A DNA stretch of 7,174 nucleotides, from IMG/VR virus record IMGVR_UViG_2700989544_000016; one strand, written 5' to 3'. Of this stretch, positions 2,013-7,174 are shown in pieces. Each line of letters starts with the position of its first letter. Within the stretch, counting starts at the first letter, position 1. Position numbers and translations under genes: made by a program. The notes beneath the pieces were generated by a model. The model was not told where the DNA came from, searched no databases, and saw nothing but the letters and a program-made list of their open reading frames with translations. Source of the DNA: a virus. Its lineage: Duplodnaviria; Heunggongvirae; Uroviricota; Caudoviricetes.

Positions 2013-2459
2013 ATGGACCGGGATGATATTCTTGACAGGGTTTTATATGGTTATTTTCTTGAACAACTATTCTCTGTAGCGACTGGTCGTCTCGATAAAC
2101 TTCTCTCAGTGGTGAGTATTATCCTCGGTTCATCTGTCATTGGTGGATTTATTCCTGAAGTTTCTGGAGTTCTCATTGTTGTGATAGCAACCGTTCAAAC
2201 GATTTACGGATTCGGACAAAAGTCAGGTAACGCAATGAGAAAATCCGCAGAATATCTGCAGCTTTATGATGATGCAGAAAAATATTCCGATTCGGAATTG
2301 AAAATGCAGTTAAAGCTCCTGGAAAAAACAGATGATAATATTTGGTCGTCGCTTAAAGATATCGCAATCTTAAAAACCCAGATCAAAATAGGAATCTCCG
2401 TAGAACAACAAGAGAAACTGTCTGCAAAATCCAAATTGATGCGATTCCTTTGTGGTTAG
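2013..2459 (+). CDS. Two-transmembrane-helix protein (148 aa); candidate superinfection-exclusion / abortive-infection protein, in the position SieB occupies in Rac
   Basis: ATG 2013 with AGGTGA (2001-2006) 6 nt upstream. Two adjacent hydrophobic segments (LLSVVSIILGSSVIGGFI and VSGVLIVVIATVQTIYGF) followed by a charged C-terminal domain. Visibly AT-rich relative to flanks. Opposite strand to the surrounding early-left genes. Confidence 0.6.
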   Translation: MDRDDILDRVLYGYFLEQLFSVATGRLDKLLSVVSIILGSSVIGGFIPEVSGVLIVVIATVQTIYGFGQKSGNAMRKSAEYLQLYDDAEKYSDSELKMQLKLLEKTDDNIWSSLKDIAILKTQIKIGISVEQQEKLSAKSKLMRFLCG

Positions 2460-2709: not shown

Positions 2710-2889
2710 GTTGACCTCATTTACCCTTAACGCCGGGTCGCGGAACTAAAAACCTGCTGCGCTGTTATACAAAGTGTTCCCGCCGTCATGTTCTTACGCC
2801 TCGGGCTGGCTACTTAACCCCTGACCACTGCCTGGTAACTCTAGGTATTGCCCTGCGTTCTGTGGGGCGGAGTGGGTTGGTAAAATCAG

Positions 2890-2917
2890 TTTATACAAAA
2901 ATAAACTAAACAGTCAA
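2890..2917 (-). promoter_or_regulatory. Strong sigma70-like promoter on the minus strand (TTGACT, 16-nt spacer, TATAAA), positional analogue of lambda pL
   Basis: On the minus strand: -35 TTGACT (plus 2912-2917), 16-nt spacer, -10 TATAAA (plus 2890-2895) preceded by TG. Lies immediately downstream of the terminator hairpin of the repressor/TA operon and fires leftward. Confidence 0.4.
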
Positions 2918-2946: not shown

Positions 2947-2962
2947 CCCCTCTTGAGAGGGG
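2947..2962 (-). terminator. Intrinsic terminator-like hairpin ending the repressor/toxin-antitoxin operon
   Basis: Perfect 6-bp GC-rich stem CCCCTC/GAGGGG with a 4-nt loop, 10 nt after the toxin stop. On the minus-strand transcript it is followed by UUAUUCUUG. Confidence 0.5.
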
Positions 2963-3260: not shown

Positions 3261-3452
3261 TTACTGTTTGCTCCGTTCCTTGCGCATGTTAGCAAAGCGT
3301 TCAGCCATTCTGCGTTCAACTTCGTCATGGGGAATGGCTGGACGTGGATCAGCAAGGCTTGCGGCCACTTTTGCACGCAGCCATTCGTTATAACTATTTT
3401 CTTGCTCGACGGTTTCAAATTCAGAAACCATTGGTGAAAGGGCCGTGTTCAT
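3261..3452 (-). CDS. paaA: Small antitoxin (63 aa) cognate to the ParE-like toxin, PaaA2-like
   Basis: Sits immediately upstream of the toxin and is adjacent to it. Size, order and charged C-terminal half fit PaaA-type antitoxins of three-component paaR-paaA-parE modules (from memory of E. coli O157 prophages). GAGG lies 9 nt upstream of the ATG at plus 3450-3452. Overlaps the regulator gene end by 32 nt. Confidence 0.7.
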   Translation of the reverse strand: MNTALSPMVSEFETVEQENSYNEWLRAKVAASLADPRPAIPHDEVERRMAERFANMRKERSKQ

Positions 3453-3882
3453 GGTGAACCTCGTCTTGTAAGTGCTGGTAATCCTGCCTAGGAACTTTTT
3501 GTTGTGCTGCTAGCCACTTTGCAACTATACGATCCATTGTCTCTTTTTTCTCTTTCATATCTTTAAGCATTTGCTGTTGCTCTTCCTCTGGAAATGCCTC
3601 AAATGTTTGAAGTAGTTCCTTTTGCGTAGGGGTTATTTTTAATATATCCTGTGCCCTGTCCTTATTTTCTTCATTTAATGGTAAGAAAAACCAATACTGA
3701 GGAAATCCAGTCACATCAGATAGTTTATCTAGGTTGGCTGCTGTAGGGCTTGAGATGCCACAAGCCCACCTTTGGACGGATTGTTGAGCAATACCAATTC
3801 TGCGCGCAAGTTCTGCTTGGCTCCAGCCTTTTGCCAATAGAAGCATCTTAATTCTAAGAGCACTAATTTCGAGTACGCCCAT
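3421..3882 (-). CDS. paaR: HTH_XRE transcriptional regulator (153 aa), PaaR-like / DicA-like, paralogous to the adjacent repressor
   Basis: N-terminal helix-turn-helix (SQAELARRIGIAQQSVQRWACG). The central segment ITPTQKELLQTFEAFPEEEQQQMLKDMKEKKETMDRIVAKWLAAQ is clearly homologous to the C-terminus of the neighbouring repressor. No LexA-type peptidase domain. Confidence 0.8.
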   Translation of the reverse strand: MGVLEISALRIKMLLLAKGWSQAELARRIGIAQQSVQRWACGISSPTAANLDKLSDVTGFPQYWFFLPLNEENKDRAQDILKITPTQKELLQTFEAFPEEEQQQMLKDMKEKKETMDRIVAKWLAAQQKVPRQDYQHLQDEVHHEHGPFTNGF

Positions 3883-3912
3883 CTGATATCTCTTGTTTTA
3901 GTAAGTATCCCG

Positions 3913-4284
3913 TCAGGCTCGGCGACCCTGCCGCGCCAACCAACGTGCAACAAGATCTTCCATTGCCTCTTTTTTGTTTCTTAGCTCTTTTATGATTTCC
4001 TGCTGCTCAGCGTCAGGAAAAGCACTAAATATTTGCAACAATTCCAATTGGTTAGGCGTTAATGCCATAGTTCTTGATGACGGAGATTCTGTTGTATCTT
4101 CAGGTTCCATATCAAGATACCCCCCAGGCATCCCATATGTTTGCTCAATACGTCTAGCTGCCTTTTCGCCAAACGTAGCTTTACCGCTCATTAACTGAGA
4201 TAAGTAACTTTTCTCTTTAGGCGGCAAAGTCCTGTCTTTGAACCACTCTTTGAGGCGTAAACGCCGAATCTCTTTTGTTTCCAT
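3913..4284 (-). CDS. Prophage repressor (123 aa), DicA/RacR-like, lacking an S24 peptidase domain
   Basis: Sits at the divergent promoter region opposite the cro-like gene. N-terminal phage-CI-type HTH (KEKSYLSQLMSGKATFGEKAARRIEQTYGMPGGYLD). C-terminal LTPNQLELLQIFSAFPDAEQQEIIKELRNKKEAMEDLVARWLARQ resembles my recollection of DicA. No SD before the ATG, consistent with a leaderless transcript. Confidence 0.8.
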   Translation of the reverse strand: METKEIRRLRLKEWFKDRTLPPKEKSYLSQLMSGKATFGEKAARRIEQTYGMPGGYLDMEPEDTTESPSSRTMALTPNQLELLQIFSAFPDAEQQEIIKELRNKKEAMEDLVARWLARQGRRA

Positions 4285-4290
4285 ACATGC

Positions 4291-4370
4291 ATTATCTTTA
4301 GTAATCGCAAAACAAGCAAATGCTTGACTGGTTTATTTAGTTGCGAATAAACTCTTGCTTGTTCTAAATG
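4291..4370. promoter_or_regulatory. Divergent promoter/operator region of the genetic switch
   Basis: Inverted repeats AACAAGCAA (4311-4319) / TTGCTTGTT (4355-4363) and TCGCAA (4305-4310) / TTGCGA (4341-4346); palindrome CAAGCA-AA-TGCTTG (4313-4326). Rightward -35 TTGACT (4324-4329) with a weak -10 (ATAAAC, 4347-4352). Leftward -35 TTGCTT (plus 4314-4319) and -10 GATAAT (plus 4291-4296), ending 6 nt before the repressor ATG. Confidence 0.5.
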
Positions 4371-4386
4371 TGCTGAGATAAAAATT

Positions 4387-4671: not shown

Positions 4672-5097
4672 ATGAAAATCAAGCATGAGCACATCCGCAT
4701 GGCGATCAATGCTTGGGCCTATCCGGACGGTGAGAAAGTTCCTGCAGCTGAAATAGCCCGGACTTATTTCGAACTGGGGATGACGTTCCCTGAACTGTAC
4801 GACGATACTCATCCAGGCGCTCTGGGTCTTAATACCCAGAAGATTTTCCGCTGGGTAAAGAAAGATACTCCTGATGCCGTTGAAAAAATGCAGGCTCTGT
4901 TACCAGCTATCGAAAAAGCAATGCCGCCTCTGCTGGTGGCCCGAATGCGCAGCCACAGTTCCGCTTATTTTCGGGAGTTGGTAGAGACGAAGGAACGGCT
5001 GGTGAAAGATATTGATGATTTCGTTGCATCAGCGATCGTTCTGTTCGATCAGATGAATCGTGGTGGCCCGGCAGGAAACACTCTGGCTGTGCATTAA
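4672..5097 (+). CDS. YdaT-like protein (141 aa), probable functional analogue of CII
   Basis: ATG 4672 with a strong GGAGG (4660-4664, 7-nt spacing), 3 nt after the cro-like stop. Position after cro, and the MKIKHEHI... start, match my recollection of YdaT-family proteins; unverified. Confidence 0.55.
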   Translation: MKIKHEHIRMAINAWAYPDGEKVPAAEIARTYFELGMTFPELYDDTHPGALGLNTQKIFRWVKKDTPDAVEKMQALLPAIEKAMPPLLVARMRSHSSAYFRELVETKERLVKDIDDFVASAIVLFDQMNRGGPAGNTLAVH

Positions 5098-5837: not shown

Positions 5838-6149
5838 ATGCGTGATTACGCAAAAGTTTCTCCGCGATTCTGGCTGGGAGAAACGGGGAGAGAACTTAGA
5901 AAGGCGGGTGCAGAAGCGCAAGTTGTTGCTTTTTACCTGATGACATCCCCTCACGCAAATATGCTGGGTTTGTATTACCTGCCAGTTTTATACCTTGCTC
6001 ATGAAACCGGGCTTGGTCTGGAAGGGGCTTCAAAGGGGCTTCAAAGGGGCTTAAAAGGGCTGTTGAAGCTGGTTTTTGTAGCTATGACCATGATGCAGAG
6101 ATGGTCTGGGTCCATGAAATGGCAGCCTGGCAGGTTGGGGAAACGTTGA
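5838..6149 (+). CDS. Replication initiator (lambda O-equivalent, YdaU-like), N-terminal part; the frame is broken inside the 11-bp repeat at 6022-6065 (frameshift or assembly error)
   Basis: Frame-3 ORF. Likely start is ATG 5838 (GAGG 5 nt upstream, MRDYAKVSPRFWLGETGRELRKAG...); the alternative ATG 5727 is in frame but has no RBS. After ...LAHETGLGLEGASKGL the conserved-looking reading continues in frame 2, not frame 3. Confidence 0.6.
   Translation: MRDYAKVSPRFWLGETGRELRKAGAEAQVVAFYLMTSPHANMLGLYYLPVLYLAHETGLGLEGASKGLQRGLKGLLKLVFVAMTMMQRWSGSMKWQPGRLGKR
6022..6065. repeat. Iteron-like 11-bp tandem repeat cluster 1 (AAGGGGCTTCA x2, AAGGGGCTTAA, degenerate AAGGGCTGTTG)
   Basis: Direct reading of the sequence: units at 6022-6032, 6033-6043 and 6044-6054, with a degenerate unit at 6055-6065. 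One helical turn per unit. Confidence 0.7.
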
Positions 6150-6670
6150 AGCCTGGCGATAACCGTTGTGCAGGTGTCAGGAATGAGTATGCATCATTAC
6201 CTGAAAACGCTTTTCTGTCAGTGTTTTACGACAGATATAAAACGGATTTCCATCTGGATGTGAGGCGGAATAATAGCCGAAATTCGGTAAGGGGCTTCGA
6301 AGGGGCTTTTAAGGGGCTTCGAAGCCAAGAACAGGAACAGGAGCAGGAGAAAGAACAGGAACAGGACAAAAACACTATGGTTCATGGCAAAAAAAACACC
6401 ACGAACCAGGCAGGGGATGTTCAGACCGTCAATCCTGGTCAGCCAGCAGGCACGACACCGGAAGCCGATTCAGCGTATGCGCTGAAAGCCGATTCGGGCG
6501 CTGTGCAGCAGGTGATGACCGCAGGGTCGGAGCAATCACACCAACTGCAGCAGCCTGAAGCCGATTCCGCCATTCAGCGGGAAGCCGATCGGGTAGTCCC
6601 GGAAAGCACCGGGCAGTCTGTGGGACGAGTGGATTATCCGGATGTGTTCGAACAGGTCTGGCGGGAATAC
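6101..6670 (+). CDS. Replication initiator, C-terminal part in the shifted frame, truncated by the assembly gap
   Basis: Frame 2 is open from 6005 to the gap and encodes ...KRAVEAGFCSYDHDAEMVWVHEMAAWQVGETLKPGDNRCAGVRNEYASLPENAFLSVFYDRYKTDFHLDVRR... plus a QEQEQEQEKEQEQDK linker. Deleting one 11-bp repeat unit joins it in frame to the upstream part. Confidence 0.6.
6289..6326. repeat. Iteron-like 11-bp tandem repeat cluster 2 (AAGGGGCTTCG, AAGGGGCTTTT, AAGGGGCTTCG) with flanking palindromes; candidate origin core
   Basis: Units at 6289-6299, 6300-6310 and 6311-6321. Palindromes CCGAAATTCGG (6277-6287) and GGCTTCGAAGCC (6315-6326). The 33 bp are in frame, encoding RGFEGAFKGLRS. Confidence 0.65.
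6329..6364. repeat. Imperfect hexanucleotide repeat (GAACAG)n encoding a Q/E-rich linker, followed by an A-rich tract
   Basis: GAACAG GAACAG GAGCAG GAGAAA GAACAG GAACAG, then ACAAAAACACTATGGTTCATGGCAAAAAAAACACC (6366-6400). Confidence 0.6.
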
Positions 6671-6781
6671 NNNNNNNNNNNNNNNNNNNNNNNNNNNNNN
6701 NNNNNNNNNNNNNNNNNNNNNNNNNNNNNNNNNNNNNNNNNNNNNNNNNNNNNNNNNNNNNNNNNNNNNNNNNNNNNNNNN
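6671..6781. other. Assembly gap (111 N)
   Basis: A run of n characters. True length and sequence are unknown, so frames cannot be carried across it. Confidence 0.95.
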
Positions 6782-6782
6782 A

Positions 6783-7174
6783 TGCTCGTTTGCGAATTAT
6801 CAGGTGCAGAACGACGGGCAAAAATACGCGCTGAGCCAGGCCAAATCCATAGCTGACGAACTGATGACCGGGTGCACGAATTTTGTGTTCAGCGGTAAAA
6901 CCGGCACCGGGAAAAATCACCTTGCAGCGGCGATGGGTAACCGGCTGATGGCGAAGGGGCGCAGCGTGATTATCGTCACCGTGTCTGATGTCATGAGCGT
7001 GTTGCATGACAGCTACGACAACGGCAAATCCGGGGAAAAATTTTTACAGGAGCTTTGCAGTGTTGATTTGCTGGTCCTGGATGAAATAGGCGTTCAGCGG
7101 GAGACGAAAAACGAGCAGGTGGTATTACACCAGATAATTGATCGCCGGACAGCATCACTGTGCAGTGTCGGGAT
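6783..7174 (+). CDS. dnaC: DnaC-like helicase loader (AAA+ ATPase), internal fragment; start lost in or before the gap, end beyond the window
   Basis: Frame-3 translation CSFANYQVQNDGQKYALSQAK...NFVFSGKTGTGKNHLAAAMGNRLMAKGRSVIIVTVSDVMSVLHDSYDNGKSGEKFLQELCSVDLLVLDEIGVQRETKNEQVVLHQIIDRRTAS. It carries a Walker A motif (GKTGTGKN) and a Walker B motif (DLLVLDEIG), and is colinear with E. coli DnaC as I recall it. Confidence 0.85.

Follow-up and report, generated by a model that had tools for sequence, protein, structure and literature searches.

Tandem non-cleavable repressors of two CI-like classes precede a paaA-parE pair in the immunity region of a CP-933P/Sp12-like defective prophage of Escherichia coli

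Introduction

We analyzed a 7,174-nucleotide stretch of caudoviral DNA (IMG/VR record IMGVR_UViG_2700989544_000016; hereafter the window, whose positions we use throughout), in which two repressor genes, here called R_A and R_B, stand in tandem upstream of a paaA-parE toxin-antitoxin (TA) pair. The closest described system is the CP-933P/Sp12 prophage of E. coli O157:H7, in which PaaR2 is the CI analogue, YdaS the Cro analogue and YdaT the CII analogue (PMC8630535). PaaR2 is reported to be leaderless and octameric, to have no peptidase motif and to give no response to mitomycin C; alone, it already couples immunity to TA expression (PMC8630535). A second point of reference is the DicA/GfoR/GtgR class of short, non-cleavable repressors, which are controlled by antirepressors (Lemire 2011, PMC3121763; Ragunathan 2023, PMC10448788). 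A third is mycobacteriophage Mcgavigan, in which deletion showed that a horizontally acquired, Bxb1-like second repressor provides heterotypic superinfection immunity only (PMC12700041).

The window has the same gene order and orientation as the paaR2-paaA2-parE2/ydaS-ydaT locus (Hallez 2010; Jurenas 2021, PMC8630535) and, like it, no S24 domain. With CP-933P/Sp12 it shares a PaaR2 orthologue, PaaA2 and ParE domains downstream on the same strand, an OR region of about 100 bp, a leaderless PRM layout, PL/OL hexamers identical to those of PR, and an exact YdaT OM site. It differs in that R_B (462 bp including the stop codon) lies between the PaaR2-type gene and paaA. Hence the locus departs from the three-component PaaR-PaaA-ParE systems, which have exactly three genes, in that the antitoxin gene does not directly follow the PaaR2-type gene. 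We found no description of this tandem arrangement in the searchable literature; R_A, R_B and the remaining components each belong to known published families. We regard it as an uncommon form of the PaaR2-PaaA2-ParE2 immunity locus, which has been studied in detail.

Results

A CP-933P/Sp12-like immunity region with R_A as its PaaR2 orthologue

The window constitutes the immunity region of a defective lambdoid E. coli prophage of the CP-933P/Sp12 kind. Its sequence matches the chromosome of E. coli OkiPb01713 at 99.98-100% identity. There the same segment is part of a defective lambdoid prophage, flanked by the integrase, exonuclease and dicB genes to one side and by replication genes to the other. 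The minus strand holds a four-gene unit, R_A, R_B, paaA and parE, bounded by a PRM-like promoter before R_A and a hairpin after parE; it faces the divergent genes ydaS and ydaT (Table 1). An initial annotation, made from the sequence alone, had placed two tandem repressor genes at 3421-4284 and quoted a C-terminal peptide of each; we find both open reading frames (ORFs) exactly where it put them, and both peptides are exact translations.

R_A is a PaaR2 orthologue. Its DNA-binding N-terminal domain (residues 1-58) matches the PaaR2 N-domain of PDB 7NKV, 8C3K and 8C3L with an E value of 1.6e-31 and ~90% identity, and Foldseek comparison of the R_A model with these structures gives TM-scores, normalized to the target, of 0.79-0.94. 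The solved domain was deposited under the name 'phage repressor protein CI'. Over the full length, R_A is only 73% identical to EDL933 PaaR2, a sequence contained in our protein P0095. A disordered linker (predicted local distance difference test score, pLDDT, below 50 in the AlphaFold2 model) leads to a DicA-type helical C-terminal domain at residues 77-122 (pLDDT above 90). No Pfam model matched R_A, and the NCBIfam DicA model matched it through the C-domain only (4.4e-8).

Neither repressor has the C-terminal S24 domain of the autocleaving LexA and lambda CI repressors. Peptidase_S24 (PF00717) gave no match to R_A or R_B at E values up to 1, and both proteins are too short for it. This bears out the initial annotation, which had reported no LexA/S24 domain and expected no RecA-stimulated self-cleavage, an expectation that also agrees with the published behavior of PaaR2. 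The PaaR2-type N-domain, for which there is no Pfam model, is also joined to PF00717 in LexA/CI-like proteins of ~210 residues (Table 1). The DNA-binding module therefore exists in cleavable and non-cleavable forms, and, because these longer proteins carry PF00717 behind the N-domain of R_A, we regard the short C-domain as an alternative module that stands in place of the cleavable S24 domain.

R_B, the second repressor, belongs to the DicA/GtgR/PaaR1 class

R_B is a complete repressor of the DicA/Gifsy-GtgR/PaaR1 class. It matches Pfam HTH_3 (7e-12) and consists of a five-helix helix-turn-helix (HTH) domain (residues 3-66), a C-domain (85-128) and a disordered read-through tail (130-153) that overlaps paaA. 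In the AlphaFold2 model the linker is helical with lower confidence, the C-domain has a pLDDT of ~76-80, and the last 24 residues are disordered. The NCBIfam DicA model matches R_B from position 18 to 132 of its 135 positions with an E value of 1.4e-15, at 57 bits, which is below the cutoff of 101. R_B is 37.7% identical to Gifsy-2 GtgR over 86% of its length (E 5e-16), matches prophage genes annotated dicA (E 1e-6), and is 53% identical over 128 residues to ECs_1069 of Sakai Sp4, also known as CP-933M (E 1e-50). We take ECs_1069 to be PaaR1 from its position, as the name is not in the record.

In size (~130-150 residues), in having an N-terminal HTH domain and in the absence of an Ala-Gly/S24 module, both window proteins resemble DicA of Qin, RacR and the Gifsy repressors GfoR, GfhR and GtgR. 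They differ from DicA in scoring below its curated cutoff, and the N-domain of R_A is unrelated in sequence to that of DicA. A location at the cI position, divergent from a cro-like gene and with operators of its own, as in this class, is found for R_A but not for R_B, the second gene; relatives of R_B in other loci (L003, L004, L010 and Sp4) do show it. R_B and ECs_1069 both have the HTH_3 plus DicA-type architecture and lie directly upstream of PaaA-ParE, but ECs_1069 is the sole repressor heading the sister paaA1-parE1 pair and has its own cro-like gene, whereas R_B has no divergent cro. The operators of ECs_1069, deduced from the near-identical locus L004, are 434-like ACAA...TTGT-type sites; R_B has no recognizable operator.

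The ends of the R_B gene are variable. At the 3' end, lineage-specific loss of the usual stop codon has made the tail ~21 residues longer than in relatives of 131-133 residues, and in other tandem loci R_B ends at 131, 132 or 139 residues, without the 153-residue tail. The R_B ORF enters paaA by 32 nt in another frame (3421-3492 region), and the read-through spans the paaA Shine-Dalgarno motif and start codon, so that it might affect translational coupling. The R_B-paaA junction itself varies, with an overlap in some loci and a gap of ~8-35 nt in others. At the 5' end, a Shine-Dalgarno-like AAGAG lies 7 nt before the R_B ATG in most tandem loci, and the ~25 nt before the start still resemble the leader of the single HTH_3 repressor genes described below (type B). 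The spacer between R_A and R_B is 19-34 nt long with indels in other tandem loci, and because it is so short it has no room for a promoter of R_B's own. Promoter scanning found no promoter-like site immediately before R_B, either within the spacer or close to it; the sole minus-strand match inside R_A (4115-4086) lies ~200 nt upstream of R_B, and the count of such matches is no better than in shuffled sequences.

R_A and R_B share a modular C-terminal domain

The initial annotation had described homologous C-domains joined to different HTH domains, and both halves of this description stand. Pairwise BLASTP of R_A and R_B gives an E value of 5e-17 with 36% identity over 75 residues; over the C-terminal 52 residues identity reaches 49%, and 25 positions are invariant. 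Profile-profile alignment (hhalign) of the C-domain families gives 98.4% probability and an E value of 5.9e-15; for the N-domain families it finds no similarity (probability 0.4%). AlphaFold2 models, built with 29 homologues for R_A and 34 for R_B, show the same C-terminal unit of short helix, turn and long helix (77-87 and 91-122 in R_A; 85-95 and 99-128 in R_B).

DicA of Qin carries the same C-domain, with an 'ELLxxFxxLPExEQ...' motif that R_A and R_B share in their NCBIfam DicA matches, and Gifsy-2 GtgR has a distant version. Across the family the module is joined to at least five different HTH domains, one of them lambda-CI-like, and both R_A and R_B match phrog_5736. A full HMMER scan of 1.84 billion cluster representatives with a C-domain profile gave only 21 matches, proteins with two HTH domains in series among them, a protein search with the C-domain returned only truncated annotations of the same gene, and Foldseek found known HTH folds only, with no solved structure matching the C-domain.

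Some relatives combine the modules in a single chain. These repressors of 240-250 residues (Table 1) consist of a lambda-CI-like HTH domain, a complete R_B-type HTH domain and one DicA-type C-domain. They occupy the cI position opposite ydaS/ydaT-like genes, and HipA_2 and DUF3037 genes follow them in the slot held here by paaA-parE. Their OR regions have AATAGCATnGTTATT-like repeats and not the sites seen in L003.

The tandem is rare and recombinant in origin

One regulator is the norm in relatives of this locus. In L002 the R_A type stands alone and paaA follows 20 nt later; compared with L002, the window has an extra 459 bp (3454-3912). In L003, L004, L010 and Sakai Sp4 a single HTH_3 protein of 132-133 residues (type B) occupies the same place, and the type-B loci that we checked for repeats (L003 and L004) have their own, different OR/OL inverted pairs. 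Thus each repressor type, when alone, is found at the cI position, with its own cro-like gene and with the same paaA-parE operon downstream.

R_A and R_B occur together in 17 of 5,426 complete E. coli genomes, and this R_B gene is found in the same 17 only; other matches to it are below 80% DNA identity and cover at most ~70% of the gene. A PaaR2-family gene is present in 612 genomes. Nineteen genomes have at least 90% identity to R_A, 17 of them tandem and two with a single repressor. Three metagenome or Sequence Read Archive (SRA) contigs (L015-L017) with an 85%-identical R_B are also tandem. In the phage collection we found no sequenced phage with the R_A-R_B pair; the only match there is partial, at 74%, between the R_A part and Escherichia phage Evi. 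A contig scan across genomes with R_B gave no confirmed relative.

The C-domain of R_B is 78% identical, in protein and in DNA, to that of the single type-B repressor of L003. To the C-domain of R_A next door it is 56% identical in protein and 66% in DNA, no closer than to unrelated type-B genes. These identities indicate that the pair arose by recombination between heteroimmune prophages. We rejected a local tandem duplication with N-domain swap on the same grounds, and found no sign of gene conversion.

Both repressor genes are intact and under purifying selection

Neither gene is broken in the tandem loci, and both evolve under purifying selection. We calculated the ratio of nonsynonymous to synonymous substitution rates (dN/dS) from five tandem loci that have diverged to a synonymous divergence (dS) of ~0.45 (up to 0.49). 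The ratio is 0.03-0.14 for R_A and 0.13-0.23 for R_B (dS up to 0.46), whose HTH domain is the most constrained part (~0.08-0.21). No frameshift or premature stop was found in R_B in any of eight tandem loci, and both genes are intact in L005-L008 and L015-L017. As the R_B subtype is seen in tandem only, this divergence most likely accumulated in the tandem state.

OR and OL fit R_A, and no cis operator is recognizable for R_B

PRM, on the minus strand, reads TTGCTT-17-GATAAT, with the -10-like GATAAT 6 nt ahead of the R_A ATG. R_A lacks a Shine-Dalgarno motif, and the sequence is compatible with a leaderless R_A transcript. A promoter scan placed PR on the plus strand at 4324-4353. The PL/OL analogue is a 30-nt inverted match to this segment, 1.4 kb from OR, with hexamers identical to those of PR. 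The same promoter and operator layout was reported for PL933P (PMC8630535). OR is nearly identical between the tandem loci and the single-R_A relative, and OL is also the same as in that relative; the OR and OL operators fit a PaaR2-type protein, that is, R_A. We considered an extra operator in the OR of tandem loci and rejected it, as OR is essentially the same in the single-repressor locus.

OR also contains a perfect palindrome, CAAGCA-AA-TGCTTG (4313-4326), that adjoins the -35 hexamer of PR. It has a terminator-like tool score and one mismatch in most relatives, and it is more likely an operator element than a terminator.

For R_B we searched the window with sites of its relatives. The recognition helix of R_B (AQQSVQRW) differs by one residue from that of the L003 and L010 proteins (AQQSVQKW), whose OR and OL contain ACACTTTAAAAGT-like palindromes. 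We looked for three kinds of site: the L003/L010 type (CACTTTAAAAGTG, allowing up to 3 mismatches), the 434-like L004/Sp4 type (ACAATAAAAAACTGT) and the generic palindrome ACAS-N7/8-STGT. None exceeded chance in the window, and none occurs in the spacer, in OL or in OR. The CP-933P half-site GTTTAGTAA was matched three times with one mismatch where 1.4 such matches were expected, an excess without significance. Between R_A and R_B, and before paaA, there is neither a promoter-like nor a palindromic site. R_B therefore has the look of a working DNA-binding protein that lacks a target in cis.

Feature map and neighboring genes

The coordinates of the features are collected in Table 1. The hairpin directly 3' of parE is probably the end of the four-gene operon. 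The YdaT operator OM, without mismatch, lies at the ydaS/ydaT junction, and YdaS is annotated WP_021577226.1; the single-repressor locus L002 encodes the same protein.

Table 1. Features of the window, and relatives that share modules with its repressors.
Feature	Position or locus	Strand	Remarks
PL/OL analogue, TTGACT-18-TAAACT plus operator-like sequence	2888..2917	-	inverted copy of PR/OR
Terminator-like hairpin directly 3' of parE stop	2947..2960	-	from sequence
ParE-family toxin, 95 aa	2973..3260	-	Pfam ParE_toxin 4.6e-16
PaaA2-type antitoxin, 63 aa	3261..3452	-	Pfam PaaA2 1.1e-20
R_B	3421..3882	-	153-aa HTH_3 repressor, DicA/GtgR/PaaR1 class
Spacer, R_A stop to R_B start	3883..3912	-	30 nt; from sequence
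R_A	3913..4284	-	123-aa PaaR2 orthologue, CI analogue of CP-933P
OR region, 102 bp	4285..4386	.	PRM on minus strand, PR (TTGACT-18-TAAACT) on plus strand
YdaS (Cro analogue), 93 aa	4387..4668	+	Pfam YdaS_toxin 1.3e-9
YdaT operator OM, exact TTGATT-N6-AATCAA	4665..4682	+	motif from PMC9986795
YdaT (CII analogue), 141 aa	4672..5097	+	Pfam YdaT_toxin 6.8e-8
Double-HTH repressors	L012 3001-3735, L013, L014		proteins P0006, P0052, P0066-P0068, P0086, P0088
PaaR2-type N-domain plus Peptidase_S24 proteins			P0120, P0123, P0125-P0128, P0130, P0134; Yersinia and other bacteria

On the PL side, the minus strand encodes the small RNA DicF (1486-1537; Rfam RF00039, 69 bits, E 4e-14) upstream of a dicB homologue and a DUF1482 gene (1121-1309 and 933-1124, both on the minus strand). 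From this combination we take the PL-side operon to be a cell-division-inhibitor operon of the dicBF type, as in Qin. A 148-aa ORF (2013-2459, plus strand; WP_000373334.1, hypothetical) lies on the strand opposite to this operon, between DicF and a DUF1391 gene. It has no Pfam or NCBIfam match and matches phrog_6315 alone (unknown function, E 2e-24); it is a possible moron. Within the replication-gene region 111 masked positions (N) occur at 6671-6781, and the ORFs at 6101-6856 (plus strand) and 6429-7007 (minus strand) are unreliable because both span this run.

In OkiPb01713 an element of the IS3 family (L001 8117-9330, corresponding to window position 4961/4962) lies inside ydaT; the window does not have it. 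The OkiPb01713 prophage is heavily degraded and contains the type III secretion system effector genes nleL, espN and espK.

Discussion

A proposed captured repressor acting in trans

We considered what a second, complete repressor might do behind a PaaR2-type switch. The reading that we favor, and to which we give about an even chance, is a leaderless four-gene PRM operon in which R_A serves as the prophage's own switch, R_B is a captured immunity repressor that acts in trans, and PaaA-ParE stabilizes the cassette. R_A would repress PR and PL and autoregulate PRM, as published for PaaR2. R_B would be co-transcribed with R_A and translated from its own weak Shine-Dalgarno motif. Because no cis operator is recognizable for it, R_B most likely acts in trans as a second immunity specificity. 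Its targets, to be repressed or excluded, would be lambdoid phages with repressors that share its recognition helix, the type-B immunity group. Downstream, the addictive PaaA-ParE pair would keep the cassette as a whole stable. Mcgavigan offers the mechanism that we favor for R_B, a second repressor that is not needed for the phage's own lysogeny and confers immunity to another phage group; the proteins and hosts are unrelated, and the role we assign to R_B is inferred.

Neither repressor is expected to cleave itself. Any induction would depend on an antirepressor, or on Cro-driven bistable switching of the kind described for CP-933P. The initial annotation had likewise pointed to an antirepressor or another route, which agrees with the known control of the DicA/Gifsy class (PMC3121763, PMC10448788). 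Among the window ORFs scanned, none had a Pfam or PHROG match to an antirepressor, and none is annotated in the rest of the OkiPb01713 prophage.

Several observations weigh against a trans-acting immunity repressor. No phage with this exact R_B as sole repressor turned up among the 5,426 E. coli genomes, the 50,697 phage records and the 185,579 species (one genome each) that were searched, so that both its proposed donor and its target group are deduced from relatives. The operator searches used sites of relatives that are 52-65% identical to R_B overall, so that a different site in the window could have been missed, and the rest of the prophage or the host genome is an equally possible location of the R_B target. 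The sequence leads us to predict co-transcription and translation of R_B, whose weak Shine-Dalgarno motif has been lost by deletion in L006. Lastly, the variable C-terminal tail (131-153 residues) resembles relaxed constraint at that end of the protein.

Possible mixed oligomers of R_A and R_B

The initial annotation had raised the possibility of hetero-oligomers. R_A and R_B might form mixed dimers or octamers through the DicA-type C-domain and so combine two DNA specificities, which would alter cooperativity or looping at OR/OL, or bridge to other sites, and thereby tune the switch and TA expression. Several observations favor this: the C-domains are 49-56% identical, are modeled as the same helical hairpin and agree at nearly all hydrophobic positions (L, L, F, F, I/M, I/L, L/M, M, L/I, V, W, L); PaaR2 forms octamers in solution (PMC8630535); and one operon encodes both proteins, so that they would be made together. 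P0006 and P0052, at the cI position, are natural single chains that put two different HTH domains on one such C-domain. The best-known precedent is the SinR, SlrR and SinI set of Bacillus subtilis; these HTH regulators are paralogues, have a C-terminal helical oligomerization domain in common and assemble into heteromers whose activity is altered. A Foldseek match to PDB 1B0N was weak (E 1.3e-3, root-mean-square deviation 13.7 Å) and driven by the HTH domain.

Against mixed oligomers, the C-domain of R_A is 96-98% identical between tandem loci and the single-repressor relative and so shows no adaptation to a partner, and the 66% DNA identity between the two C-domains, the same as to unrelated type-B genes, carries no sign of gene conversion. 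Mixed oligomers would also dilute the cooperative binding of R_A, and phage repressors that are related to each other, those of P22 and 434 for instance, keep their dimerization specific although their C-domains are similar. On balance we consider hetero-oligomers unlikely. A narrower version, which we hold to be quite improbable, is that mixed oligomers are the two-gene equivalent of the double-HTH repressors P0006 and P0052, holding the prophage's own OR/OL while recognizing the operators of a second group; if true, this would link stability of the prophage's own switch, cross-immunity and expression of the addictive ParE module.

R_B as a possible passenger or TA regulator

R_B might instead be a functionless remnant of an immunity swap that survives only through being wedged between the essential R_A and the addictive TA pair, which has been proposed to stabilize the region against rearrangement (Jurenas et al., PMC8630535). 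The lack of cis operators, the variable spacer with its indels and weak Shine-Dalgarno motif, and the lost stop codon with a tail of 131 to 153 residues are all what such a passenger might look like, and the fused double-HTH relatives also hold the R_B-type module second, without matching operators nearby. The selection data speak against it: dN/dS is low across R_B and lowest in the HTH domain, the gene is unbroken in all eight tandem loci examined, and the subtype is found in tandem only, where its divergence most likely arose. For this reason we disfavor the passenger reading and judge it rather improbable.

That R_B is a dedicated TA regulator, the 'split antitoxin' DNA-binding partner of paaA-parE while R_A controls the prophage, is very unlikely: R_B does lie directly upstream of paaA, and in Sp4/CP-933M and other type-B loci the same protein type regulates a three-component PaaR-PaaA-ParE system, but there it holds the cI position of a unit flanked by OR/OL-type pairs, and is thus an immunity repressor heading a TA operon, whereas the window has no candidate site before R_B or paaA and the R_B-paaA junction is not conserved among loci. 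The initial annotation had cast one protein as CI and the other as TA regulator. This framing falls, since both are CI-class proteins and each type alone heads paaA-parE from the cI position; the part that stands is its picture of non-cleavable repressors with a shared, modular C-domain. Nor is a second protein needed to couple immunity to the TA pair, because PaaR2 alone has that published property.

Implications

The PaaR2-PaaA2-ParE2 locus is a model for a TA pair wired into a phage lysis-lysogeny switch, and a tandem variant of it raises three questions: (i) whether short repressors of the DicA/Gifsy class keep their oligomerization specific or cross-assemble; (ii) whether prophages stack immunity specificities by capturing the repressors of heteroimmune relatives; and (iii) how immunity regions recombine while the addiction module is selected to stay. 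If R_B is only an extra immunity gene acting in trans, the addition to known biology would be modest. These questions are relevant to polylysogenic pathogens such as Shiga toxin-producing E. coli, in which many lambdoid prophages coexist and cross-talk.

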